From the IMG/VR virus record IMGVR_UViG_3300027828_000067, positions 1 to 35,920 of that record: a stretch of DNA of 35,920 nucleotides. One strand, 5' to 3'. Below the pieces are notes generated by a model that saw only the letters and a program-made list of their open reading frames with translations, had not been told where the DNA came from and ran no database searches. The translations under genes and the position numbers were made by a program. Position 1 is the first letter of the stretch, and each line of letters starts with the position of its first letter. Source of the stretch: a virus. Lineage: Duplodnaviria; Caudoviricetes. This document shows, piece by piece, positions 1 through 28,510 of the stretch.

Positions 1-112
1 CGTGCCGAAGGGTACGGTTTGCGAGTATTGCAAAGAGCCTAACGCCCCAAGTGGGCGATGTACCAACCTACTGTGTACAAACTACCTCAATAACGAGCAA
101 ACTGCACGCTAA
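1..112 (+). CDS. 3' end of a small Cys-rich protein (VPKGTVCEYCKEPNAPSGRCTNLLCTNYLNNEQTAR*), truncated by the window edge
   Basis: Frame 2 is open from position 2 to TAA 110-112; CxxC...C-x4-C; the stop lies in the TAAC core of the attC-like site. Confidence 0.55.
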   Translation, partial: VPKGTVCEYCKEPNAPSGRCTNLLCTNYLNNEQTAR

Positions 113-198
113 CGGCTCGGCTATGTTTTGAAGCCGACACCGAGAAAGTTAGATTGAAAATATAAACCAACAAAGGCTTTTAAATATAGCTTTTGTTA
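110..198 (+). repeat. attC-like inverted-repeat site (site 1)
   Basis: TAAC 110-113; arm GCTATGTTTTGAAGCC 120-135 pairs with GGCTTTTAAATATAGC 175-190 (2 G.T, 1 T.T); GTTA 195-198. Confidence 0.75.
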
Positions 199-214
199 TA
201 AACTTTTAAAAATT

Positions 215-448
215 ATGGCAAAATGTATTCGATGCGGCGATAGTATTCCGCAACCAGACAACAGAAAAATATGCAGAGATTGTATGGGAGATTGGCGTAA
301 AATGAGAGCTATAAATTATGCCTACTGTGAAAAGACCATCGGAAAAATGGAGGGGGAACAATTTGCTCCGTTCCAAAAAGAAATGAAGCGACTTGAAAAT
401 ATATGGAGGCGCAATAAAGAAAAGTGGGCGCAAATTGTGTGCGAATAA
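215..448 (+). CDS. small zinc-finger-like cassette protein
   Basis: CIRC...CRDC; lies between GTTATAAAC (195-203) and its near-complement GTTTGTAAC (458-466). Confidence 0.65.
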   Translation: MAKCIRCGDSIPQPDNRKICRDCMGDWRKMRAINYAYCEKTIGKMEGEQFAPFQKEMKRLENIWRRNKEKWAQIVCE

Positions 449-498
449 TTTTTTATTGTTTGTAACGTAGTGCTAAATAAACCTTTTATTGCAATAAA

Positions 499-5127: not shown

Positions 5128-8100
5128 TTATCTCCATTCTATTGTTACATATAAAATTTCGTCGCGTCTCTTGTAATGAATAATTGTATATGTACTTGCG
5201 TCTGGTTGGATATTACTAACTATACCCTCATCTATCGACGTAACGCCTGTTATATTCTCAGCAAAGGCTAAAGTTCTGCTACCTGTTGCATCTTGTCTTA
5301 ACTCAATGTCTCCATTACCAAAATCTGGTACGTCTTGAAATGTAATAGTAGCGTTTGTAGCAAGCACTAATTCAGCATCATTACCCAAGTCATAATCAAA
5401 AGTAATAGCTGCACCGCTTGTTAGTGTTTGCCTTGAATCTGAGCTTCCTGTATATAAAGAGTCTGCTTGCCCTTTGGTTACATACTCCGCATCGAGCACA
5501 GCGTCATCGCCCGATACTGTTCCTGAAAAATCAGCATTGCCCCAATAATCGACAGTTAACAATCTAGTGCTGTCTAAATTTTCAATTGCAAAATACGTGT
5601 TAATATTGCTTGTGTTGCCAATCCTATTCGTTATTGAGCCTATATTGTCACTACTTAGGGACCTGTTTTCGATTACAAATTTAGCTAATGACCCACCTTC
5701 GTGGAATAGATTAGTCTGATAATTTGCCAATCCCTTGCGCCTTGCTATTGTTATACCATCTTTATCAACATCAGTGCCAACATTCACCCTTATATCTCCA
5801 TCAGCTCCGTCTGACTCACTACCAAGTTCTATTCCTATGGGGCTATAATTATTAACAGCGACAACTTCTTCTAGTCCAATAGTATCAACTCGCTCTGTAG
5901 TCGCTATCGTAGAAGTATCAACTGCAATAGTTGCAGCAGAGGCCGCGTAATTTACATTTATTCCATACCCTCCTATTATTGTATCTGCTCCAGATGTTTG
6001 TTCCTCAATCAAAAATCCCACATCAATTTCAAGCTGCAATCCACCATCAACGCCTGTGCCAATAAACAAATAAACATCTCCAACCTCATAAAGCTGTGTA
6101 GTGTCTGCTGTTTCCCCTGCTACCGAAGTGGATAGAAAGTAATTCATACCAACTACCCAAGAACCTTTATCGTATAATCCTGAATGCTGATATGTAAAAG
6201 TATTAACGTCAATTACCTCATAAACTATTCCTATTACGTTGGCATTGTCTGGATTGTTCGCAATAGCCTTTGCGTTGTAATCTATCACATCACCAACTAC
6301 GAATCCGTGAGATGCTAAAGTGATTGTGTCAAGTGCTGCCTGTTTAACATCTGCCTGATTAATAGTAATTGTTTTAGGAGTCGTTTGGTTTAGAGTAAAT
6401 GTCTCAGGTGAGTTCTCGACTGCTGAGCCTTGTATGGTTACTAATCCGTCACCTATGGTTGGGGTGTTGTTTACTTGTGAATAATCAACACTGAAACCTG
6501 CTGAGTCAAATTCCGTTAAAAGAACATCCCCGGCCAATACGTTTTCTAATGCAGTGCCGTCCGCGCTTGCTCTCTGAAATGCTAATGCAATAAGACTGGA
6601 TGGTGTATCATCAAGTTGTGTGTAGTCCGTAATTCCAGAACTTCCTGTGCCACCACCCACCGTATTGTTAGGCATATATCCTCTCAAATCTAAATATCCA
6701 GTGCCTGAATTATAAGTGAAGTTGCCCCCTGATCTTCTGATTGTAAAACGTCCAATCAAAAAACCAACTCCTCTAAAGTCTCTTGGGATAGTGTAATTAG
6801 TAAAATTGTCAGGGTCTTCAACTGCTGCATCTTCCTGTAAATATCCATCACTAGGAAGATTGCACATTAAATGGCTAATCTCACCTGTCTTATTGCAAAC
6901 TCCCCAAATAACAATATTACCCCACTCATTATTCCAATTACTACCATCTGAATAAACGGTTATGTCGTTTAGATTAGTTGTATTTCGATATGGTGACACC
7001 GGGTCATTTACTATATTAATACCGTCACCAGACGACATCTCAATAGTAGGGAATGTTTGCAAGTGCATTTGCCAAACCTTGCCACCTGTAACGTCAATAT
7101 AAACGTTAGTGGGTGTGCCTAGTAGGCTAGCAGCCGTTCCGCTTTCCCATTCTGCATTCATTACTCTTATTCGTTCTGCCATATGCAAAACGTGACCGTT
7201 ATCGTCATCTGATTTAAAGTGATCGTTAATATTCTGATTTCTCAAGGCGCCGTAGTCTTGAGTAGATACGGCATCTGCTATGATTAATGTCGCCACCTTG
7301 GAATGCTCTATAATTGGATAACCGCCTGAGCTTACTTGTAGTGTTCGTGTTGCTGCATCAATGTAAGCGTATTGAATCTGTGGCGTTGTTGCTGTTCCTG
7401 AAATTAACTGTATCGTGTCTGGAACTTGGAAGTCATACCATCCGTCACTATAAACAAGCGTTAACTTGTCTGAGCCGTTCGGATTGGACAGAATGCCGTA
7501 AGAATTAATGCCGTCTGAGTAGGTTCTAAAATCAAATGTTTCCCTAATCGCGCCATCAAAATAATGCGTTATAGAGTTCCTGTAGTTTACTCCATCACTA
7601 CGCCATTGAATTATTCCATCAGTTACGCCTGTTTTTATACATAACCCAACCGGATAGTCGTAATATGGAAACTGTGGATTTTCATTTGTAAAATATCCTA
7701 ATGAATCAACATAAATAGCGCCTAGAGTTAATGTGCCTGTGTTTATATCATTGACTTTTCCTTCTATTGAAACTATTAATCCCTTAGTATATGGTGGTAT
7801 ATCTGCTGTTGTAACTCCGAAAAAGTCATGACGTTCTGTTTTTGACACGTACCTAACTGCTACTAAATCGTTAGCAATCCCATCAACACCAATTACCCTA
7901 CCATCCTTTAGCGTATCGGCAGTATTGTTGTAAACAGTAGTCAATGACTCCTGATTTACTTGCATCCTTATTCCGTTCGGCAAGTTGACGGTTAATGTAA
8001 GGTTTGCAGTGTCGGCATAAATAGTATATTCAGTTGTAGGAATTGGTATTACGTCTGGGTTAAATGTTATTGAATCAAATGGCTGTCCGAGTTGCCGCCA

Positions 8101-8538
8101 AAGCAACTCATTATCTGCGCCGTTAATCTTCCAGCGTGCAGACAAATCCAGTGTAGAGTAATCAACCGAACCAACATATTCAGCGACTCCACCCCCTACT
8201 GATTTATAGCATCTTGCTATCTGATTTGTCTGAGGTGCTTGTCCTGTTTCGTACTGGTCCCAAACTGATATTGTCGTAGATGTTGAATCAATTACTAAAT
8301 ATCTATGACCAATAAAGTCAACAACGTAATTTCCTATCTTTCGTTCAATTGCTCCGGGGTCGTTATAGTCAAAAGGTTCTGCTGCAAATTCGTAAGTTGA
8401 GTCTGTCAATATCACAACATCCGCAGGGTAAAACTTCCAGTCTATTTCCCTGTAATACTCATCTTGCAGGCTGTCTTGGATTTGCGAATATCCAACAAAT
8501 GAAAATAAAACAAATAATATAATTAATAATTTTCTCAT
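5128..8538 (-). CDS. large tail fibre/spike-like protein with signal peptide
   Basis: 1136 aa, acidic and beta-rich; C-terminal LRQDATGSRTLAF motif typical of phage tail proteins; N-terminus MRKLLIILFVLFSFVGYS|Q. Confidence 0.7.
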   Translation of the reverse strand: MRKLLIILFVLFSFVGYSQIQDSLQDEYYREIDWKFYPADVVILTDSTYEFAAEPFDYNDPGAIERKIGNYVVDFIGHRYLVIDSTSTTISVWDQYETGQAPQTNQIARCYKSVGGGVAEYVGSVDYSTLDLSARWKINGADNELLWRQLGQPFDSITFNPDVIPIPTTEYTIYADTANLTLTVNLPNGIRMQVNQESLTTVYNNTADTLKDGRVIGVDGIANDLVAVRYVSKTERHDFFGVTTADIPPYTKGLIVSIEGKVNDINTGTLTLGAIYVDSLGYFTNENPQFPYYDYPVGLCIKTGVTDGIIQWRSDGVNYRNSITHYFDGAIRETFDFRTYSDGINSYGILSNPNGSDKLTLVYSDGWYDFQVPDTIQLISGTATTPQIQYAYIDAATRTLQVSSGGYPIIEHSKVATLIIADAVSTQDYGALRNQNINDHFKSDDDNGHVLHMAERIRVMNAEWESGTAASLLGTPTNVYIDVTGGKVWQMHLQTFPTIEMSSGDGINIVNDPVSPYRNTTNLNDITVYSDGSNWNNEWGNIVIWGVCNKTGEISHLMCNLPSDGYLQEDAAVEDPDNFTNYTIPRDFRGVGFLIGRFTIRRSGGNFTYNSGTGYLDLRGYMPNNTVGGGTGSSGITDYTQLDDTPSSLIALAFQRASADGTALENVLAGDVLLTEFDSAGFSVDYSQVNNTPTIGDGLVTIQGSAVENSPETFTLNQTTPKTITINQADVKQAALDTITLASHGFVVGDVIDYNAKAIANNPDNANVIGIVYEVIDVNTFTYQHSGLYDKGSWVVGMNYFLSTSVAGETADTTQLYEVGDVYLFIGTGVDGGLQLEIDVGFLIEEQTSGADTIIGGYGINVNYAASAATIAVDTSTIATTERVDTIGLEEVVAVNNYSPIGIELGSESDGADGDIRVNVGTDVDKDGITIARRKGLANYQTNLFHEGGSLAKFVIENRSLSSDNIGSITNRIGNTSNINTYFAIENLDSTRLLTVDYWGNADFSGTVSGDDAVLDAEYVTKGQADSLYTGSSDSRQTLTSGAAITFDYDLGNDAELVLATNATITFQDVPDFGNGDIELRQDATGSRTLAFAENITGVTSIDEGIVSNIQPDASTYTIIHYKRRDEILYVTIEWR

Positions 8539-9173
8539 ACGAATATCATATATACTTTTATAACTTTATTTATTGTAGCCAAACTTTGAATTTTCAAGGT
8601 GTCTTCATCAGTTGTTATTATACCATTATAGGCTGCTGTGTTAAAGAGCTGCTGCTCCTCCGTCCCTGTTACGGCAAAGATAGAAACTTGTGCAACTCTT
8701 CTTGCTTCTCCATGCGTTACTATTAAATCTGTTCCTGAAGCCGCAATAGACCAACCAAGTGGAAGTGTTGCTCCAGATATGCGTCCAGCAACAGTGGTAG
8801 ATGCTGGTAATGTCATTTCGAATAATGTCTGTGGTAACTCTAACGCATATCTTCCATCTAAATTAACAGTGTAGTCTAAAACGGCATCTTTGTAAAATTC
8901 AAGATTACCAGTTGTGTCATCCCATACAGCAGAAGTCCAACCGCTTGCGCCGCTTGCGGAATAGGCTAAATAAATACCGTCCGACCAAGTAGCACCAAAG
9001 TCACCTGATAGTCTCATATATAAATCACCACTAGCCCAAGGGTAATGCCATGTTGCATTATCTGCGCTGAACTGTATTTGAAAACCTAAAGCATTCAAAT
9101 ATGTAATTATAGAGTTTAGCTCTGTTCTTGCGCTTAATCCGCTATCACCATCGTCTATTTCTGTAAATGCCAT
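8535..9173 (-). CDS. minor tail protein
   Basis: IDDGDSGLSARTELN N-terminus resembles phage fibre-attachment segments; located after the tail hub gene. Confidence 0.55.
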   Translation of the reverse strand: MAFTEIDDGDSGLSARTELNSIITYLNALGFQIQFSADNATWHYPWASGDLYMRLSGDFGATWSDGIYLAYSASGASGWTSAVWDDTTGNLEFYKDAVLDYTVNLDGRYALELPQTLFEMTLPASTTVAGRISGATLPLGWSIAASGTDLIVTHGEARRVAQVSIFAVTGTEEQQLFNTAAYNGIITTDEDTLKIQSLATINKVIKVYMIFV

Positions 9174-9174
9174 T

Positions 9175-11460
9175 TTATATATTTAAGTTTATTATTACTC
9201 TTTTTAATATTCCGCTTATCGTCACATCAAATGACGTTTGCGCTATTCCTGAAAAATCTACTGGTATTTTAAACCAAACAGAACCAACAGCCAACACGTG
9301 AGGCACTGATGGTATTGGTGCAATATTACCGTCACTTATTGACCCTATGCTTGGGAATGTTTCTACAGTGTCCCCTATTCCTGATTCTGAAATCTGCACT
9401 TTTGATCCAGCTGAATAAATTGGACTTTCAAGGGTATATTCTATTACGTCCGAGTCTCCATCTCTCCAAGTATCCTCATCTATCCATATTCCTTCATCAT
9501 TCCAGAATCCAGTCTCTAGAATCCATGCAGTACCATCCCATGCAGCAAATTCAACAAAAGTTCCAGAGAATATTGCAGACCTATAATCCAAATCAGCACT
9601 TATACAAATATACTCTTTAGGTAATATCTGATAATCAACAATAGTACTATCGAACTGTATATCCTGAGACAATATAGGAACTGATAGTTTAAATTGTGGC
9701 TTCGAAAATATACCTTTATAATCATCACCCATCAACTGCAGCAATGGTTTGTCTATTGCCGATCCTCTCTCGTGCCATTCCTCAGTGGCTTCACCATCCC
9801 TATTTCTATATCCGTTATCCCATGTTAATAATTTATTCAGATCATCTGGGTATTCATTCGGCAAATCACCACCAACAACGTTTATGTCTGACGGCTTGTA
9901 AATGTTACTTTGGTTTATTAATATGTTTGTTATTTCTTCGTTTCTAAAGTCCTCACCATCTCCATTTAGTAGCCTTACAGATATGTTTTTAAAGGCTGTT
10001 GTTATGAATTTATCACTTGCTGATAATGGAGAAAGTGCATTGTATATTTTTACAAAAAAAGTACCGTTGCCAGGGAATGTGTCAGCAGTGAAAGTTCCTT
10101 CGTCAAATGTTAATACACCTTCCTTTCCTGTTCCAAATACTGTTATTTGAACAGTCTGCTGTACTGTATTCCATACCAAGCTATTTCCGTTTCCGTTCTG
10201 ATTTTGTTTTAAATAAAAGGTGCCACTATCGCCAACAAACTTAAATTCACATATTATAGCCTGCTGACTTACTACTGCATTTTCAGAATAATCAGGTACT
10301 TTATCTTTTCTCCAAACACCAAACTCAAAATTAAATAATAATTTCCTATCATCAAGACTGACAATCGGGTACATCTTGCAACCTTCGATTGTTTGCGATA
10401 TGTACTGCCTTGCTGCCAATGTGTTTTGCGTTGTTATTTCTGCATATGGGAAATCCTGACCTTGTATTCGTTCAGCTATTCCTGATGTTGACAGATCCCA
10501 ATCTTCTGGGTCTCCATTATCTTTCCACTTAGAAAAATCGCTATTTAAAAGGAAACTATCTTTCCTGCCCAAGTCCTGAACCCAATTAAATTCTTTCCAT
10601 CCCGGATTAAGGTCTAGTTGTGGTGAGTTTGTTAAAATCTGACTGGCTACTGGTCTTCCAATTAAGAAAGAAGTATTTTTAGTTGTGCTTACTGTATTTG
10701 TTTTATAGCCTGTCGTCGTATAATTCCACTTCCTTACCGTTAAATCTGCTGTCGTTTCTTTTATTCTAACGATCCACCACTCAGCACCCATCTGATATAG
10801 TCTAGCACCAAAGGTTAGCATCTGGTCAGATATAGCATCGTAAAGCGTTTTGCCTTCGTATGCTGAAAGCTTTATAGTTGTTTCATATAGTGGACTGTCG
10901 TCTGTATTGTCCGTTTCATTAGAATATACGTTTATAGCATCGTTTAAATCTAACTCGGTATCTATTGTTCCGAGTGCGTTAGATAGTATCGTTAATAGCC
11001 TTGGTTGGTCGGTTGTTTCAATAGAAAGTGGAGACAATGTGTATTCTGTCATTGTTGCTGGAATTATTGTCTCTTTCAGTTCACCCAGACCGCACCTTGC
11101 TGTTATTTCAACTATATACGGAGGTGCGACATAAGGCTCTGAGAATAAATCAGGCAATACCCAACCACGCCAATCTAGGACTGAGTTTTTATAAATATCT
11201 ACACGGTGCGCCCTTGCATCTGAATCATGCAGCTCTATAAACTGAAAATCAACCTCTGATAACATTTGTATTTTAGCTTGACTACCTACTATTGGATTGT
11301 ATGGCGTTTCGTCGCTTCCAGGATAAGATATTACTAAAGGCGTTTCAGATGTTTTTATTTCTGTAGACGAGCCAGAAAAGCCATTACCAAGAATCTCTAT
11401 CCTGATAGTGTCATCATAGTAACTTTTAAATTCGTTCCAATATTTAAGTCCGTATGCCAT
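9175..11460 (-). CDS. distal tail/baseplate hub protein
   Basis: 761 aa directly after the tape measure; MAYGLKYWNEF...WRGWVLPDLFSEPY. Confidence 0.65.
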   Translation of the reverse strand: MAYGLKYWNEFKSYYDDTIRIEILGNGFSGSSTEIKTSETPLVISYPGSDETPYNPIVGSQAKIQMLSEVDFQFIELHDSDARAHRVDIYKNSVLDWRGWVLPDLFSEPYVAPPYIVEITARCGLGELKETIIPATMTEYTLSPLSIETTDQPRLLTILSNALGTIDTELDLNDAINVYSNETDNTDDSPLYETTIKLSAYEGKTLYDAISDQMLTFGARLYQMGAEWWIVRIKETTADLTVRKWNYTTTGYKTNTVSTTKNTSFLIGRPVASQILTNSPQLDLNPGWKEFNWVQDLGRKDSFLLNSDFSKWKDNGDPEDWDLSTSGIAERIQGQDFPYAEITTQNTLAARQYISQTIEGCKMYPIVSLDDRKLLFNFEFGVWRKDKVPDYSENAVVSQQAIICEFKFVGDSGTFYLKQNQNGNGNSLVWNTVQQTVQITVFGTGKEGVLTFDEGTFTADTFPGNGTFFVKIYNALSPLSASDKFITTAFKNISVRLLNGDGEDFRNEEITNILINQSNIYKPSDINVVGGDLPNEYPDDLNKLLTWDNGYRNRDGEATEEWHERGSAIDKPLLQLMGDDYKGIFSKPQFKLSVPILSQDIQFDSTIVDYQILPKEYICISADLDYRSAIFSGTFVEFAAWDGTAWILETGFWNDEGIWIDEDTWRDGDSDVIEYTLESPIYSAGSKVQISESGIGDTVETFPSIGSISDGNIAPIPSVPHVLAVGSVWFKIPVDFSGIAQTSFDVTISGILKRVIINLNI

Positions 11461-22086: not shown

Positions 22087-23226
22087 TTATATGAATAAAG
22101 ATTCTTCCTTGATTTCATTCCTTAATCCCAAACTAAACGCATACCTTAAAGCATCAATCCCGTGATTCCACATATCGACAGGTTTGTTTAAAAAATTGCC
22201 GTCTCTGTCTTTTTGCCATTTATAATGCTTATATTCTTTCCAAACGTTACTACTGCTCCGAGTCAATAAAACATTATGACGCTTTAAATAGTCAATTCCT
22301 TCCATTATGCTACCCGGCTTCTTATCTGCTGGTATAGCATTAATACCCATTAGTTTTAGCTCCTGAATACTCTTGGGCTCTGCACTATCACAAATAACTA
22401 TCTCGCCATTATAGCCCTTTTGCTTTATCATTTTGGCAATATCAGCGTTAGTTAACTCAATTTGATAAAGAACTTCATCTACAAAGATACTATTTTTTTC
22501 TTTAGCAACTTTAACTATCGAAGTCGGATCATTCGAGAATCCAAAGTCTAACCCGTACCAAAAATCTATATTTGGAAATAACTCTAGCTCCTGCCAGTCC
22601 CTGAATACCTTGCCGGCGTATAAATTACCTACTAACCCAAGACCATAAACTTTATACCATTCTGGATCAGTGGTCATGTACGCCTCTATCTCGTCAATTG
22701 CCGACTGAGGACATGCTTCATTGTCTTTATATGTAACTATCTCGAACGATGTGTCAGGCTTCCCTTTGTATCTCTCATGCGCCCAAAACTCAGCATCTGG
22801 ATTGTAGTCGATATAAACAGTTTCACGGGTACGCATTATTAACTGTCTTGCTGTTTCCCATTTAACCCTGTTAGCCTCATTTATAAACAGTATATCCCTA
22901 CGTCCACCCCTTGCTTTTGTTTCGTCATCCAATGCGAAAAACTCAAATGTCCAATTGCCTATTGTTCTTTCTATTGGCTTCTTTGTTCCTGCGTCAACTA
23001 TATTGTCACTTGCTAGAATGTTTTTATAATCACGATATGCACCCTTTTCTATATTAGGCAGGGTGTCAGTTACTATTGATATAAGCTTAGTCTCCTTTGA
23101 CTCTGTTGCTTGTAGTATAAGTTTTTGAAGTATTGAAAATGTTTTAGAAGCACTTGAAGAACCTTGAACGATTCTTACACGTCCAAGCATTGCTGCAATC
23201 TTATTGAATGATGTTGTTAAAATCAT
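22087..23226 (-). CDS. terL: terminase large subunit (PBSX/Terminase_3-like)
   Basis: Walker A-like GSSSASKT, ILFINEAN, DYNP, GLDFGFSNDPT, DSAEP, NHGIDALRY. Confidence 0.93.
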   Translation of the reverse strand: MILTTSFNKIAAMLGRVRIVQGSSSASKTFSILQKLILQATESKETKLISIVTDTLPNIEKGAYRDYKNILASDNIVDAGTKKPIERTIGNWTFEFFALDDETKARGGRRDILFINEANRVKWETARQLIMRTRETVYIDYNPDAEFWAHERYKGKPDTSFEIVTYKDNEACPQSAIDEIEAYMTTDPEWYKVYGLGLVGNLYAGKVFRDWQELELFPNIDFWYGLDFGFSNDPTSIVKVAKEKNSIFVDEVLYQIELTNADIAKMIKQKGYNGEIVICDSAEPKSIQELKLMGINAIPADKKPGSIMEGIDYLKRHNVLLTRSSSNVWKEYKHYKWQKDRDGNFLNKPVDMWNHGIDALRYAFSLGLRNEIKEESLFI

Positions 23227-23723
23227 TTATTGAGTGCTTCTTTTAGTTCATCAGGTGTTAGTGTTGTTATTATGTTTGTCTTGGGAGACATTGATCCATC
23301 GCCGCTTCTATGATCTTTCGCGTCTGCTAGTCCAAGGTCTCTGGCTATTATGTTGGCACTAAACGCTCCAACCGCTGCACCTTCAAACTTCTGTTTATAA
23401 ATTGTTTCCTCTATACGCGTAATGATGTAACTAAAATCTTTATCACCTTCAGGCAATTGCTTTTTAAAGTTATTGAAATACTTCGTGTTGCAATCTAAAT
23501 ATAAACACAACCCATGCAATGTAAAAGGTCGCTCTGTTGGCGTAGTCTTTATGTCTATATTCTCTCCTTTGATTGTTGTCTCAACCTTTTCCCAGGGATT
23601 ATCTTCACACCATTGAAAGTATTCACATGCAGCGTCCCACATCAATTCAGGCGTAGCAAAGAGCTTATCTCTTCCGTGTTTACTCCTTAATTTCCAAAAA
23701 CTATTCCCTCTCGGTGCTGCCAT
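23223..23723 (-). CDS. terS: terminase small subunit (P22 gp3-like)
   Basis: MAAPRGNSFW.LRSKHGR...CEYFQW...NP, GLCLYL, QKFEGAA..F.ANIIARDLGL. Confidence 0.9.
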   Translation of the reverse strand: MAAPRGNSFWKLRSKHGRDKLFATPELMWDAACEYFQWCEDNPWEKVETTIKGENIDIKTTPTERPFTLHGLCLYLDCNTKYFNNFKKQLPEGDKDFSYIITRIEETIYKQKFEGAAVGAFSANIIARDLGLADAKDHRSGDGSMSPKTNIITTLTPDELKEALNK

Positions 23724-23750
23724 TACCAATCAATTAAATCTTCCATTATG

Positions 23751-23758
23751 CAAATATA
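23751..23758 (-). promoter_or_regulatory. putative late promoter -7 element TATATTTG
   Basis: Exact TAnnTTTG about 28 nt upstream of terS. Confidence 0.55.
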
Positions 23759-23768
23759 ATTAAAATAA

Positions 23769-24182
23769 CTAATACCTTTTCTTATTTCCCCCTTTAATAT
23801 TATTTCTCTTTATGCCCTTGTGCGGAATGGTAGAAATGAACTTTTCTTTTCCGTTCTTTTTCTTTCTGATAATTCCCGATACAAGATAAACCCTTGTTTT
23901 TTGAGTTTCGATGTAAATATAGGATTTGTTTTCATTGCAAAGATCAACGGCATTTGTTTTCATTCCCAAGTGTGATGTTATGAAAGAATCTATTTTTATC
24001 GTATCGGAAGATGTTATATATTTAGGGCAGCTCCATCCGTTAGAGGCCCCTACCATGTAGGTCTTTTTCTCCTGTGCCTTCCCGTCAAATACATACCATA
24101 GCAGAAATATTGCCATTAGTGATATGACTATTAAGATAGGTATCAATGCTAATTTTTCGCTTTTCTTGTTTTTCATATTCAT
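23769..24182 (-). CDS. membrane-anchored or secreted hypothetical protein
   Basis: N-terminal hydrophobic helix; basic C-terminus. Confidence 0.55.
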   Translation of the reverse strand: MNMKNKKSEKLALIPILIVISLMAIFLLWYVFDGKAQEKKTYMVGASNGWSCPKYITSSDTIKIDSFITSHLGMKTNAVDLCNENKSYIYIETQKTRVYLVSGIIRKKKNGKEKFISTIPHKGIKRNNIKGGNKKRY

Positions 24183-24220
24183 TTATATTTAACTATCTGT
24201 TATTTCAAATTTTAAACAAA

Positions 24221-24451
24221 TTACTGAGGAAACGAAATATATTTTCTATCCTCTATTTTAACACCATTTAATTTGTCCGCTTGGTAATTAATTGTTCGAG
24301 GTGACTTTCCTGTTAAATTAGAAAAAGTAGAACAACTTACTATTTGACAAGCATTGATTATTGTTTGCGCAATTACGCAAGCTTTCTCAGGATTTGCAAA
24401 ACATAAATCCTGTAATCTTTCAATTTCCTTTGATGTAAGTTTCTTATTCAT
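24221..24451 (-). CDS. small HTH-like protein
   Basis: VSCSTFSNLTGKSPRTINY helix-turn-helix pattern. Confidence 0.5.
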   Translation of the reverse strand: MNKKLTSKEIERLQDLCFANPEKACVIAQTIINACQIVSCSTFSNLTGKSPRTINYQADKLNGVKIEDRKYISFPQ

Positions 24452-24476
24452 AGTCTTTTATTTATTTGCGCATTTG

Positions 24477-24506
24477 CGCATTGTGCATACCGATACCGTT
24501 AGCGGT
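24477..24506 (-). repeat. attC-like half site (site D)
   Basis: C-N11-GTTAGCGGT on +; no partner arm found. Confidence 0.5.
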
Positions 24507-24609
24507 AAGCTGAAAAATATAATAATTCATTTGTGCTTAATTTAGGCTGCATCGCTTTTAACGAAACAACCAACCGCTAACAAAGCGCAAATTGCATACT
24601 ATCCAGCAT

Positions 24610-24810
24610 TTAATCAACGGCATCGGTTAAGTCCGTTTCTTTAGTTTCCCCTCTCGCTTTGCTTTTTGCAAAAGCATAGAATTTGCATAGTGCATTTTCG
24701 TAACGTTTTTTCGCTGATGAATTAGCGTAACTCATTTCGTTTAAACCAAAAAATTCTGAAATTTCTTTATTTGAAATTCCTAGCTCTTTTTTAAGTTCCT
24801 TAATATTCAT
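24610..24810 (-). CDS. XRE-like HTH protein
   Basis: IKELKKELGISNKEISEFFGL. Confidence 0.65.
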   Translation of the reverse strand: MNIKELKKELGISNKEISEFFGLNEMSYANSSAKKRYENALCKFYAFAKSKARGETKETDLTDAVD

Positions 24811-25049
24811 TTTGTTAAAAGATTAAGTTCGGCATTAATAATATAAACAGGAACATCAATTATAAATTGTTCAATAAGAATCAACCTATTTTTTGAGTTA
24901 AAGAATATTATTTCGCCATCTGACTCAATGTTTTTTACACAAAAAATATTTTTTGAATATTGGTAAACAATTAATCCATACATGGCAGAATCGCCATACA
25001 TTTTTTCTGTATGGCGAAGATTTAGTTTTGTAATTATTTTTTTATTCAT
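24807..25049 (-). CDS. hypothetical protein
   Basis: 80 aa; coupled to both neighbours (TAATG and ATGA-type overlaps). Confidence 0.55.
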   Translation of the reverse strand: MNKKIITKLNLRHTEKMYGDSAMYGLIVYQYSKNIFCVKNIESDGEIIFFNSKNRLILIEQFIIDVPVYIINAELNLLTK

Positions 25050-25228
25050 TATAATGAATCTTCAAATTGTTCGTATTCTGATTCTGTCATTCTTTCTTCA
25101 AGTACATTAAGTCCGCAAGAAAAAACTATTATTGAACCTTCATCTTCGCTATTCATTGCAACTTTAACGTCATTAATAAGTTGTTCTGTTGTTCTTGCTC
25201 TTAGTTTGCTTTCGATTAAGTTTTTCAT
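25049..25228 (-). CDS. 59-aa acidic protein (not in ORF track)
   Basis: MKNLIESKLRARTTEQLINDVKVAMNSEDEGSIIVFSCGLNVLEERMTESEYEQFEDSL*; follows a promoter. Confidence 0.6.
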   Translation of the reverse strand: MKNLIESKLRARTTEQLINDVKVAMNSEDEGSIIVFSCGLNVLEERMTESEYEQFEDSL

Positions 25229-25254
25229 TTTGTTTTGTTTTAATTATTATACTT

Positions 25255-25318
25255 CAAATATAAGCATTTACTTAATACTGTACAAGTGTTTTATAATTTA
25301 TTTTAAGTATTTACTTAA
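25255..25318 (-). promoter_or_regulatory. promoter TATATTTG with two palindromic operators
   Basis: CAAATATA 25255-62; TAAG(C/T)ATTTACTTA at 25261-74 and 25304-17. Confidence 0.65.
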
Positions 25319-25438
25319 TTATTCTTATAAAATGTAAAAAATGATACAAAAACCCCACCCAAAAACTAAAGAAACTACTACCAGCATTTAATCAAAGTCC
25401 GTGAAGTACGCAACTTGCGCGAACCGTTACCAACCATA

Positions 25439-25714
25439 CTACTCACTCCATTTCTTGCAAATATGGGAATGTGGGTCTGTAATGCCTTTAATGTCCAGCG
25501 ATACGAAGCAACTAAATTGCTCATGTTTTGGCTTTGTGCTCTCGTACATACAGTATTTGCAAGTGTAGCAAGTACGGTTGGTAACACAAGGTAAATTTAA
25601 TACTTCGTTTACTGCACTTTTGATAATTTGATAGCACTCACTTGTGCTTAATCCAGTTCCTACTTCGCTTTTTAAGTTTCTTGCGTGTCGTTCAATTACT
25701 TCTGCTTTATTCAT
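25439..25714 (-). CDS. chimeric-looking small protein spanning an attC-like core, Cys-rich C-terminus
   Basis: Starts inside the site B loop; codon 44 (GTT, Val) is the core; followed by CYTCKYC...C...C. Confidence 0.6.
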   Translation of the reverse strand: MNKAEVIERHARNLKSEVGTGLSTSECYQIIKSAVNEVLNLPCVTNRTCYTCKYCMYESTKPKHEQFSCFVSLDIKGITDPHSHICKKWSE

Positions 25715-25769
25715 TTTTATATAATTTTGTGGTTAATAATTTGTACTAAACTTACCAACACCGTTGAGA
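25571..25769 (-). repeat. attC-like site B
   Basis: GGTAAC 25580-85; arm GGTAAATTTAATAC 25590-25603 vs GTACTAAACTTACC 25743-56; GTT 25763. Confidence 0.75.
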
Positions 25770-25819
25770 ACAATAGCGTTACGCTCCGTTGCTCTCCGCT
25801 TCACTACAAATCCAACCAT

Positions 25820-26023
25820 TTAAAGTTTAAAGGCAGTAGCTTCTCCTTTGTAATTATAAGTAAAACCGTACGTCTCGCCACATTCGCATTTAACTTTGGT
25901 AAATCCGCATTTATTGCGGTTGCACTTATTGAGTAATTTGTCATCTGCATCCCATTCCGTAACATGACAGAATGGGCATTCATAATCTATTTTTGCAAAA
26001 CTGATGCTTATAATTTTATTCAT
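25820..26023 (-). CDS. small zinc-ribbon cassette protein
   Basis: CPFC...C...C...CEC; likely start MNKII; the frame stays open upstream to 26194 through the site A core. Confidence 0.6.
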   Translation of the reverse strand: MNKIISISFAKIDYECPFCHVTEWDADDKLLNKCNRNKCGFTKVKCECGETYGFTYNYKGEATAFKL

Positions 26024-26073
26024 AAGTAATAACTTTAAATTCCTTTGTATTTCTACTGTTCTAAAAACGAAAA

Positions 26074-26968
26074 TTACAACAACGTGTAAAAATAATAGCG
26101 GTTTCGGTGTTTCAATTTGACATTCTACAAGTTTGACCAAAAAGAAAAAGCCACCGCACTTTTGCCTTACAGGCAATTTGGTTTTACATTCCACAATAAA
26201 TCATCTTGTTCAACATTTATTATATATTTTCCGCTTTCATAATCAGGTCTAACATATTTTGCTGCATAATCAAACTTGTCTTTCCTTTCCATCTTATAAA
26301 CTATTCCTTCTGGTTTATCAGTTTTAAATCTATAATCAGAATGCCTATTCAATATTTCTAGTCCAGTTTCTATCGGCAAAGCCCCATATCCGCAAAATAT
26401 TAATCTAGGAGTTTCAAAGTTTTTTAACAAAAGCAAATTAAAATCCTTATAATTTAGGCGTTCATTATTAGCATTGAAATAATCAAAAACAACAAGTGGC
26501 TCATTTAGTATCTCATATTTTAAACTATGTACCTGCATCAACCACTCTCCAGTTATGCGCTCACCTTCACCTATAAAATCAAATCTATCTTTTTGCTTTT
26601 GTACCCATTCAGCAAAATAGTGATGTTGTTTGTATGGGCTTGTTTCTGCTAAATATCCAGATCGTGTCATTGCATGTATTTTACCGTCAAGTTTTGTTAT
26701 TCCAACATTGCTGCCGTCATATTTTTCAGTAACAATCAGGTAATCATGCTTATCTCTAGTTTTAATAGTCATTATTCGGTGTTGCCCTTCATGTACATAT
26801 TTATCAGTTCCACCAAGCTTAGAGCCAAGTAAGTGTGGAATACTACCATAATTTTTTCTATTTAAAGGTTTCATAAAAAATCCCTCCCTTTTTTTCTTTT
26901 TTACATTCGTTCATTTAATCAAATTTTGTAGGTTAATTCCGCTACTATTCTTACACAACACGTTAAAA
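26074..26968 (-). repeat. attC-like site A; arms enclose the RNA ligase gene
   Basis: AAC 26078-80; arm GTGTAAAAATAATAGCGG 26084-26101 vs CCGCTACTATTCTTACAC 26939-56; GTT 26962. Confidence 0.75.
26167..26874 (-). CDS. ATP-dependent RNA ligase family protein (nucleotidyltransferase domain only)
   Basis: Motif I EKYDGSN, III ITGEW, IIIa VVFD, IV EGIVYK, V AAKY; YGSIPHL N-terminus. Confidence 0.85.
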   Translation of the reverse strand: MKPLNRKNYGSIPHLLGSKLGGTDKYVHEGQHRIMTIKTRDKHDYLIVTEKYDGSNVGITKLDGKIHAMTRSGYLAETSPYKQHHYFAEWVQKQKDRFDFIGEGERITGEWLMQVHSLKYEILNEPLVVFDYFNANNERLNYKDFNLLLLKNFETPRLIFCGYGALPIETGLEILNRHSDYRFKTDKPEGIVYKMERKDKFDYAAKYVRPDYESGKYIINVEQDDLLWNVKPNCL

Positions 26969-27160
26969 AAGTGTAGGATATCCTACGGTTTGATTTTGTT
27001 CACTTACTTTATTTTCGTTAACCATTTCCCAAAAGGTTGCTGTACGGTATGTATAGCGAAGTATGTTTATGTGTCCTGCGTTGTATTTAAAGCCTTGCTT
27101 TTTCCAACGTTTAATAATTCGTTGCTTAAATCTATTTTCGCTTAGGTACCAGACTTTCAT
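26963..27160 (-). CDS. hypothetical basic protein, first gene of the cassette array
   Basis: Its TAA stop is the TAA of the TAAC core of site A. Confidence 0.55.
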   Translation of the reverse strand: MKVWYLSENRFKQRIIKRWKKQGFKYNAGHINILRYTYRTATFWEMVNENKVSEQNQTVGYPTLF

Positions 27161-27177
27161 AGTTTATTTGTTTAATC

Positions 27178-27221
27178 CAAAAATAACATATATCAACTCG
27201 TGATAATATGATACTTGTCAT
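27178..27221 (-). promoter_or_regulatory. array promoter TATTTTTG with an upstream palindromic box
   Basis: -7 element 27185-27178; ATGATACTTGTCAT 27208-21; 22-nt spacer. Confidence 0.6.
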
Positions 27222-27228
27222 GTTTTAG

Positions 27229-27792
27229 TTATTTTCTGAAACTTTTTGTAGTATTCATGATGTCATTAATATGTATTGGTTTTGAAGTCCTATCAAAATT
27301 ATCTGATTTGTATCTTTCAGATTCTTGAATTGAATTTTCAGCAGCCGTACTGCATCTTTTATTAAAATGCTCATCAAACCACGTCAATATAATTTGACCG
27401 TCAAGTCTTCCATATATTTGTCCGTACTTTCCAATCTTAGCGTTTTTGAATATGAAATTTATATCAGCTAAATTCAAATTATAATACTCATCAACTATAA
27501 GCATTGCCGTTTCGCTTGTTTGCTCATTTGTCATCTTGTTTCCAATATTAATAAATTCTCTAAGGTTAACGATCCATCCTTCAATGTAAGCCTGAATAAA
27601 ATCTTCTCCGTATGTTTTCTTAATCGTAGCGATTGTTGGCATATCAGACTTAAGCACGGCAGCGATAGAGTCAATTTTCCGGCATTTTTTCATCACTCTT
27701 AACACCGTGAAGTCTGTTGTAAATTGAACGCTTGTAAGCTTCTGTAACCCCTGAATTGGATTCCTCACTAACTGATTTTCTTTTTTGCTCAT
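27229..27792 (-). CDS. replication-associated protein (possible helicase loader)
   Basis: Follows and overlaps the initiator gene; LNLADINFIFKNAKIGKYGQIYGRLDGQ.IL.W. Confidence 0.5.
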   Translation of the reverse strand: MSKKENQLVRNPIQGLQKLTSVQFTTDFTVLRVMKKCRKIDSIAAVLKSDMPTIATIKKTYGEDFIQAYIEGWIVNLREFINIGNKMTNEQTSETAMLIVDEYYNLNLADINFIFKNAKIGKYGQIYGRLDGQIILTWFDEHFNKRCSTAAENSIQESERYKSDNFDRTSKPIHINDIMNTTKSFRK

Positions 27793-28510
27793 TTCTTGAT
27801 TTTATTAAAAGTACTTCAAAATAAGTAACTCCGTCTTTATCCTTTTTCCTTAATTTTTCTGTTGACCTGATTTGCTGCTTCCAGAAATTATCGTTTTTTA
27901 TAAATTCAAACACCTCTCTAAATTCCTCAATAGTTCGATTGTCGTTTTCCATTAATAATCGAATTGGATTAATCCAAGTTTTGAATTTTGCACTGTCTAA
28001 TGTTTTTGTCGAAATATTTAATTCTAATAAATTTGATTTAAACAACTCCATAAAAGAGTTAGCTATTTGATAATATTCTTTATCTCTATGGTCGAGGGTT
28101 GATTCATCAACTTGAGACAATAAGGTTTTATTCTTTTTTTCTTCATTAACATTAGCACTTACACTTACACTTTCATTAACACTATCACTTACATTATCAT
28201 TATCACTATCGGCTTTTTTGGGTTCGTTTGGGTTTCCAATTAACCCACTGGGTTTTTTGGGTCTGCCTCCCTTTTTACCATTCTCACGATTCCTATCAAT
28301 TATATTCTTATACTTCAATAGGTCGCGTTTAAGCGTGTTTCTAATAGTTGTAAATGATACTTTAACCATTCGATCATCTGTTGAAGGATTTAGATCATTT
28401 ACATACCTCCATAAATGCTTAGCTAATCTCCCTGCCTCGTCATCTTCAAGCTCTTCGAAAATATCAATCCAGTCAGCGTATGCTATAAATGATTTCTTAT
28501 TCTCTGCCAT
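27671..28510 (-). CDS. replication initiator (DUF6291-like N-terminus)
   Basis: KKSFIAY.DW...L.D.EAGRL; RNRENGKKGGRP; low-complexity linker; D.FW...I.S..KLR C-domain. Confidence 0.75.
   Translation of the reverse strand: MAENKKSFIAYADWIDIFEELEDDEAGRLAKHLWRYVNDLNPSTDDRMVKVSFTTIRNTLKRDLLKYKNIIDRNRENGKKGGRPKKPSGLIGNPNEPKKADSDNDNVSDSVNESVSVSANVNEEKKNKTLLSQVDESTLDHRDKEYYQIANSFMELFKSNLLELNISTKTLDSAKFKTWINPIRLLMENDNRTIEEFREVFEFIKNDNFWKQQIRSTEKLRKKDKDGVTYFEVLLIKSRNEQKRKSVSEESNSGVTEAYKRSIYNRLHGVKSDEKMPEN
28143..28263. repeat. short tandem repeats inside the initiator gene (candidate origin)
   Basis: Hexamer-period CACTTA/CATTAT/CACTAT run, then TGGGT x4 and one inverted AACCCA. Confidence 0.5.

Follow-up and report, generated by a model that had tools for sequence, protein, structure and literature searches.

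Does a phage carry gene cassettes that move as folded DNA in the manner of integrons and, if so, with which enzyme? This question is raised by positions 24477 to 26968 of the virus record IMGVR_UViG_3300027828_000067, where a preliminary description made from the sequence alone had noticed three hairpin-like sites (A, B, and C) and one half site, and had proposed an integron-like cassette array. The record, referred to here as the window, is a whole linear virus contig of 35,920 nucleotides (nt), estimated to be ~78% complete. It derives from a tailed phage, whose host is likely a member of the Bacteroidota, with replication genes at 27-36 kb and terminase-to-tail genes at 2-24 kb, and its minus strand encodes almost everything; the array sits between the replication block and the small terminase gene. 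Our results point to a three-cassette array that lacks a recombinase. A compact Xer-type enzyme, likely provided from elsewhere, probably moves its cassettes in folded single-stranded form. Counted from G|TT to G|TT on the plus strand, the cassette units would correspond to 24499-25426, 25427-25763, and 25764-26962.

The three sites are confirmed. On the plus strand each reads AAC, 3 nt, arm, and then second arm, 5 nt, GTT, which is the register originally given for A, B, and C. The arms pair over 18 (A), 14 (B), and 16 (C) positions without extrahelical bases and with exactly two A/C mismatches per arm pair, at arm positions 7 and 12, that become G:T pairs on the minus strand. When the entire window was searched for this geometry, the search returned three sites on the plus strand and none on the minus strand, versus 0.03 sites per shuffle in 30 dinucleotide shuffles. 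The scan pattern was derived from the window sites themselves, and independent support comes from the family of related sites. Other claims of the preliminary description stood in part. The strand bias in folding holds for A and C, whose arms are predicted to pair across ~850-nt loops on the minus strand (pair probability 0.92 and 0.97, versus 0.43 and 0.54; predicted DNA fold of C, z = -3.85). The ends of the intervening segments are complementary over 6 nt (C segment) and 12 nt (B segment), and the GTTG/CAAC match of the A segment extends only one base past the core. The upstream gene stops in the TAAC core in the case of A only; for B and C, the preceding stop codons are 55 and 11 nt away. 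The half site has a left arm that fits a regular site (20.3 bits with a matrix built from related sites) and, of the two fixed C positions, retains just the first. Overlooked at that stage were the whole genes in loops A and C, the placement of all window cassette genes on the folded (minus) strand, the gene that starts in loop B, and the signs of decay.

When the left arm of site A was used as a pattern, matches were found in 1 viral locus, at least 121 metagenome loci, and 122 genome stretches. The proposed link to Bacteroidota was upheld, as 74 of the 80 first-listed genome rows name this phylum, 4 name other phyla, and 2 name none. The right arm was found by threshold in 99 of the at least 122 viral and metagenome sites (95 unique), and most of the 23 sites without such a call run off the contig or fall just below the threshold. 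Since 94 of the 95 unique two-armed relatives measure 116-122 nt, the remaining one (L056) being 1141 nt, site A is a long form of a common short site. An exact search for the left arm of C in viral contigs gave no matches. Among 309 unique phage sites, lengths cluster near 43, 75, 83, 110, and 120 nt. The classes near 43, 83, and 120 nt step by ~39 nt (L183-L261), and the loops of the A family show by eye a repeated motif of ~19-20 nt, possibly protein-binding repeats. One call of 1281 nt (L236) was dropped as an artefact because it encloses another site, and the long site L178:4672 is possibly a chance pairing. Cultured Bacteroidota phages with this site family include Polaribacter phages Freya_10 and Danklef_5 (L179 and L181), Cellulophaga phage Ingeline_1 (L180), L025, and L418. 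No literature describing the family as a system was found in a search in which subscription journals were mostly not covered.

The related sites conserve a structure rather than a sequence. Where the 3' spacer measures 3 nt, as it does in the window sites (66 arm pairs), 11.5 of the 12 other positions pair within a site, compared with 6.2 when arms are swapped, and most arm positions are occupied by three or four pair types. In the same set, the G:T pair is present at the outer fixed position in 66/66 and at the inner one in 50/66. An alignment without bulges is best in 240 of the 309 sites and one with a one-base bulge in 69, and within the unbulged classes the G:T pair 14 nt from the 3' GTT occurs in 32/32, 42/42, 88/90, and 70/76. 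Thus, the suggestion that conserved G:T pairs take the place of bulged bases agrees with their near fixation across these classes, with bulges still occurring in the family. On the segment side, the ends pair over 6 of 6 positions in 227 of 286 cases (5% with shuffled partners), and 183 of 253 related segments carry a G:T pair at position 8.

Comparisons among relatives locate the breakpoint of these exchanges. In the A family, 15 pairs (7 cassettes) keep the site and its 3' neighbour and diverge right before the 5' AAC, and no pair does the reverse. Under strict limits (100-nt flanks at 92% identity), all 14 swaps, 8 in phages and 6 in bacteria, fall at the 5' AAC of the G:T strand, which is G|TT on the plus strand of the window, the exact base within the shared triplet not being resolvable; under looser limits, 20 and 54 pairs break there. 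The earlier proposal of a cassette-shuffling system with crossover at G|TT is therefore borne out by breakpoints in relatives. Additionally, the 3' GTT is crossed by open reading frames (ORFs) in 128 of 315 sites, whereas crossing of the 5' AAC, seen in only 19, is at the level of the antisense background (18-21). Because swaps break at the 5' AAC while ORFs cross the 3' GTT, the mobile unit is the site plus the following segment on the G:T strand, as in integrons.

As had been anticipated, the recombinase is not on this contig (PF00589 search, 0 of 1 records, with 14 of 14 controls positive), and the search for a co-occurring tyrosine recombinase was successful in relatives, with a 268-amino-acid (aa) enzyme lying just past the array in L056. 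This enzyme reaches 130.5 bits on TIGR02249, whose cut-off is 265, and scores best with archaeal XerA. Against IntI4 (2a3v), the profile moves from 178 to 211 while the chain moves from 179 to 260, so that ~48 residues are missing at the IntI insert, for which the classical integron integrase of Shewanella phage M16-3 (L182) served as comparison. The accessible portion of PMC4889954 describes an insert of ~35 residues in IntI near patch III. IntI, the enzyme originally named, is thus a poor candidate, as the array-linked recombinase lacks this insert and IntI1 failed on a family member discussed below. A 41-row recombinase alignment, in which the catalytic residues are invariant, was used as a query, and the best 80 of 277 viral loci were taken. 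In these loci, with the detector run alike on both strands, 391 sites lie on the recombinase strand and 7 on the opposite one, mostly directly upstream of the recombinase. Furthermore, an AT-rich motif beginning with the core triplet occurs at most 130 nt from the recombinase start in 32 of the 50 loci with upstream DNA, versus 5 of 3974 background windows, under a pattern written after viewing examples; we read it as a probable equivalent of attI. The half site of the window was ruled out as an attI because it does not match this motif. The recombinase is also found in Freya, Danklef, and Ingeline (split in Danklef_5), whose isolates differ in length by up to 5 kb (Freya) and up to 1 kb (Danklef), and these phages are possible experimental models.

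Under the mechanism that we favor, a compact Xer-type recombinase, likely supplied from elsewhere, would excise a cassette as a folded single strand and re-insert it, cutting at the 5' AAC of the G:T strand. The G:T pairs would serve as strand markers, and the product would be resolved by replication as in integrons. The excised strand would fold as a dumbbell, with one stem made of segment ends, core, unpaired spacer, and arms, and a loop at each end. Cargo could then be placed in either loop or through the stem, as would be the case for the C genes (in the site loop), the B gene (across the stem), and the two A genes (one per loop). Modest and enzyme-less as an example, the window nevertheless presents all three cargo layouts within 2.5 kb.

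Cargo has been exchanged within shared flanks. L056 shares with site A the arms and the adjoining inner flanks (~85 and 90 nt), which in L056 enclose a gene for a methyltransferase rather than for an RNA ligase, and L131 has a third, different ORF after a site A-type left flank (right arm off the contig). Homologues of the RNA ligase are encoded between sites in Flavobacterium phage 6H and, in L031, following a short site; a block resembling the gene block of loop C lies between sites in L042. DNA methyltransferase is a frequent cargo in related phage arrays (L040, L056, and L418). Loops longer than 400 nt with whole ORFs are found in 8 of 309 phage sites (one artefact removed) and 1 of 269 bacterial sites. 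Loops longer than 250 nt are followed by a segment of at most 100 nt in 8/12 cases, versus 4/272 for short sites; C fits this tendency and A does not. Both long loops of the window contain an inner stem, with a G-rich motif to the inside of each stem arm (the stem of C is also present in the centroid fold). At 10 bp or more, this module occurs in 8 of 12 long loops, a set that includes the two of the window, and 5 of the 12 have it at 12 bp; it is also present in 9 of 97 long segments and in none of 147 controls at 12 bp, the motif having been written after viewing examples. The module may help the arms to meet across a long loop or mark a gene-capture point. A target duplication is a doubtful explanation for the G-rich motifs, as three short cargo-less loops hold one or two of them, and a G-quadruplex was ruled out by inspection, since several have a single GG run. 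These short loops of 69-75 nt (L184:9635, L220:4476, and L229:3740; paired side by side in the first two) are candidate blank forms of the gene-loaded module. By eye, several long loops also show a mini-hairpin at or next to the stop codon of their gene, immediately ahead of the right-hand G-rich motif (window 26167-26185, L056 6035-6055, L194, and L197:5959).

A further kind of joining is suggested by gene B, whose first 42-46 residues are near-identical in the 3 of 3 other homologues found, with different back halves (a comparison of proteins only, no DNA). These shared fronts and different backs imply that sites have acquired new segments, too, by joining in the vicinity of the 3' GTT or at the triplet itself, which is in frame in 80 of 107 genes that start in a loop and cross it. 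Such joining may take place during cassette building or by rare use of the other strand, and it is not the common shuffling step. Tentatively, and as something that could well be the case without being our expectation, these data may describe a second integron-type system. It would combine an Xer-like enzyme without the single-strand module of IntI, dumbbell cassettes loadable at either end, flank modules (loop repeat, inner stem, and G-rich motifs) as gene-capture places, and occasional exchange at the 3' GTT leading to in-frame fusions.

Several results weigh against movement of folded cassettes by a recombinase from elsewhere. No partner arm for the half site was found anywhere in the window, the ends of the cassette A segment barely pair, and the arms of B are not predicted to pair in an isolated fold (mean pair probability 0.01). 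The contig, at ~78% completeness, yielded neither a recombinase nor an AT-rich attI-like motif, and no biochemistry on an array-linked recombinase was found in the literature. In the nearest other phage (L002, 88% TerL identity), the matching interval contains unrelated DNA and zero sites and is uninformative on the cores. The suggested search for excised circles covered the contigs of 3 runs, of which two are possibly the source, and revealed no excision joint, although contigs drop rare variants; a low-depth 151-nt contig that matches 25353-25428 and ends at the core, and another that starts at 24579, come from other genomes and are hints only. According to the accessible text of PMC8946536, long loops reduce classical attC recombination by up to 4 logs under replicative conditions. 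Finally, under looser limits, 1 pair breaks at the 3' GTT and 22 pairs share only the 3' neighbour. Another comparison gave 39 pairs that share a loop with both neighbours different; therefore, sites were also joined to new segments. The lack of recombinase, attI-like site, and excision joints, together with the unpaired half site and the decayed ends of the A segment, is also what a frozen relic would leave, that is, cassettes gathered in a recombinase-bearing ancestor that now change only by homologous or illegitimate recombination. This possibility is compatible with the mechanism above, and we consider it rather doubtful, since A and C have kept intact arms, including both G:T pairs. Moreover, the complete genome of Polaribacter phage P12002L has ~11 sites and no recombinase homologue, and the 98%-complete record G126 has sites without a recombinase, so that recombinase-less arrays are common. 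Among 121 genomes sampled from the order to which a Bacteroidales metagenome-assembled genome belongs, 61 carry homologues of the enzyme, which makes supply in trans plausible, and another contig of 41.6 kb that encodes gene B could carry a recombinase.

The other alternatives concern the enzyme and the nucleic acid that folds. If the hairpins acted in RNA through G.U pairs, as processing or stability elements or as templates for gene capture by RNA or reverse transcription, with the recombinase working on duplex DNA, the G:T strand would be expected to follow transcription. It does so in phage arrays, where the segment gene is sense to the G:T strand in 173 of 175 cases, as in the window, and the stability of the fold of C is in line with such a role. 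At the 47 A-family metagenome sites, however, the neighbouring gene mostly runs antisense to the G:T strand (antisense at 39, sense at 6, none at 2), as it does in two bacterial arrays checked gene by gene. These opposite orientations indicate that the G:T strand follows the DNA strand and not the mRNA. The G:T side is fixed relative to the crossover, an Rfam scan of 23000-28500 gave 4 matches that were all under the gathering score, and no reverse transcriptase was seen among 52 window proteins scanned; an RNA role is thus unlikely. Even less probable, in our view, are divergent ordinary attC sites served by a host IntI, despite the AAC...GTT cores, the G|TT crossover, and the G:T bias on the folded strand, which are attC traits in the accessible text of PMC5027507, and despite one P12002L family site having been called attC by HattCI in that of PMC9892861. 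The window arms have no bulges, GTTRRRY is present in 28 of 354 related sites (GTTR in 350), the linked enzyme falls short of the IntI model and lacks the residues of the insert region, and none of the 121 genome loci around A-family sites matched IntI better than an Xer-type enzyme. Furthermore, IntI1 did not recombine P12002L_attC1 (PMC9892861, accessible portion).

On comparative evidence, then, the system appears to work like an integron, and it departs from IntI/attC membership in four tested features. As far as the accessible portions of PMC5027507 and PMC4889954 describe them, classical integrons share with it the AAC...GTT cores, the AA|C crossover of the better-folding strand, and the conservation of structure over sequence; in our data, the conserved AAC triplet on the folded strand coincides with the crossover of the relatives' swaps. 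Self-complementary cassette ends and, in relatives, a tyrosine recombinase beside an attI-like end are likewise common to both. Unlike classical integrons, the R box GTTRRRY is found in none of the 4 window cores, the two or three extrahelical L-box bases have no counterpart in the unbulged window arms, the insert-bearing IntI is replaced by an enzyme without insert (and by none on this contig), and cassette genes of the window and of phages lie on the folded strand, whereas bacterial members have them on the nonfolded strand as integrons do. The segment-side stem of ~12 bp with its own fixed G:T pair and the loops of up to 1.1 kb with whole genes are also unlike classical integrons, in which the G:T bias (1.24 versus 0.39 per site) is an average and not a matter of fixed positions (PMC5027507, as far as accessible).

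Related observations have been made under other names. The window contains at least two cassette sites without an adjacent integrase, as in clusters of attC sites lacking integron integrases (CALIN), with the provisos that these differ from classical attC and that the completeness of the contig is ~78%. In the accessible text of PMC9892861, Qi et al. (2023) report a CALIN in P12002L, treated as classical attC, with 2 sites called. It resembles the present array in that a Bacteroidota phage carries a cluster of cassettes without a recombinase, and its cargo includes a methyltransferase; genes in loops are not reported in that portion. Of the ~11 sites in our scan, published pipelines called one (PMC9892861, same portion). 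P12002L_attC1 belongs to the family (44 nt, G:T strand), and attC2 is the terminal core of the array and not a family hairpin. In the same accessible text, attC1 alone among six sites was not recombined by IntI1, a result for one site in one assay, and attC2 was recombined by IntI1 (PMC9892861).

The bacterial loci of the family have a recombinase of 370-387 aa followed by co-directional genes (L317 and L431 among them), the layout that accessible parts of the reports describe for the rAID systems of Bacteroidales, with an XerD-like recombinase and repeated intergenic motifs "reminiscent of integrons" (bioRxiv 10.1101/471110; PMC12247911). Those parts give no hairpin, crossover, or strand. The 5' XerD-like recombinase with more than 44% identity to BF9343_RS08045 that defines rAID there is absent from our contig, and at least two co-directional low-GC genes downstream of the recombinase are not the arrangement of the phage arrays, which are upstream of it. 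No orphan immunity genes were seen among the window cargo or 10 bacterial cassette ORFs, a small sample that is not from gut Bacteroides. A close recombinase homologue is within reach in only 4 of 121 genome loci, a fifth being a weak 27% match, and about half of 16 stretches around bacterial recombinase homologues show no clear array; the phage set therefore shows a more complete link between site and recombinase than the bacteria do. The targets of Xer enzymes are fixed dif sites in duplex DNA; unlike these, the partner sites of the array-linked enzyme vary in sequence and keep a fold. Archaeal XerA and XerCD (PDB 4a8e, 5hxy, and 1a0p) are its best solved relatives and align without a large gap.

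If the proposed mechanism is correct, folded-DNA cassette shuffling would not depend on the IntI insert or the bulged bases that have been regarded as its defining features, standard attC models would miss most such sites in Bacteroidota phages, and phages could stock accessory genes, such as methyltransferases and RNA ligase. Same flanks with different genes, and the same gene front with different backs, are concrete substrates for studies of cassette assembly. Should the family be a second integron-type system, it would reveal how cassettes are made, an open question for integrons. The coordinates of the window features are given in Table 1.

Table 1. Features of the cassette array and of the second-array end in the 35,920-nt window
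Feature	Position	Strand	Remarks
Site A	26078-26964 (AAC 26078, GTT 26962)	-	884 nt core to core; arms 26939-26956 and 26084-26101
Site A probable crossover	26962/26963	-	side taken from family breakpoints
Site B	25583-25765 (AAC 25583, GTT 25763)	-	180 nt core to core; probable crossover 25763/25764
Site C	24579-25428 (AAC 24579, GTT 25426)	-	847 nt core to core; arms 25405-25420 and 24585-24600, two G:T pairs
Site C probable crossover	25426/25427	-	side taken from family breakpoints
Half site	24477-24500	-	5' core and left arm of a regular site; proximal end of array
C segment	24498-24581	-	84 nt, no gene; ends pair over 6 nt
Direct repeat	24603-24617 and 25381-25395	.	15 nt, immediately inside both arms of C
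C inner module, right half	24635-24657	-	13-nt inner stem arm 24635-24647 and G-rich motif 24648-24657
C inner module, left half	25363-25375 (stem arm) and 25353-25360 (G-rich motif)		
Promoter-like element, loop C	25255-25262	-	TAnnTTTG match upstream of three loop genes; putative
Loop C ORFs	25049-25228, 24807-25049, 24610-24810	-	three, all within loop
B segment	25426-25585	-	160 nt; 12-nt complementary ends with a G:T pair at position 8
Gene B	25439-25714	-	91-aa ORF; starts in loop B, reads 3' GTT as Val44
A segment ORF	25820-26023	-	67 aa, Cys-rich, inside 318-nt segment; no Pfam match
A inner module, right half	26139-26157	-	stem arm 26139-26149 and G-rich motif 26150-26157; shared with L056
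A inner module, left half	26890-26901 (stem arm) and 26882-26888 (G-rich motif)		
RNA ligase gene	26167-26874	-	235 aa, entirely inside loop A; PF09414 E 6e-21, PHROG 548
65-aa ORF	26963-27160	-	outside array; stop codon overlaps TAAC core of A
Second-array end	111-466	+	84-nt site 111-197 (G:T on +), 77-aa ORF 215-448, closing core 464-466

Regarding the cargo of the window, the 66-aa ORF at 24610-24810 encodes a small phage protein with relatives in 24 viral loci and a weak, possible likeness to helix-turn-helix proteins. TAnnTTTG is what we take to be the Bacteroidota -7 promoter element, and the promoter-like stretch of loop C (25216-25270) is a repeated element, because it matches short pieces of many other contigs in three runs. 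For gene B, a likeness to Tad8 (0.91) was not confirmed by the Pfam model, and 0 of 14 candidate relatives in viral contigs were confirmed.

Elsewhere on the contig, a second array, opposite in strand, terminates at the contig start, and the 66-aa ORF that follows it (499-699) resembles by eye the post-array gene of Flavobacterium phage 6H (L025). No cassette DNA is shared between the array described here and L002 or L003; in L002, unrelated small genes, many of them reversed in strand, occupy the equivalent interval (5900-9500). Finally, a tandem 30-nt repeat lies within the DnaD-like replication gene at 28142-28201 and possibly represents origin iterons.

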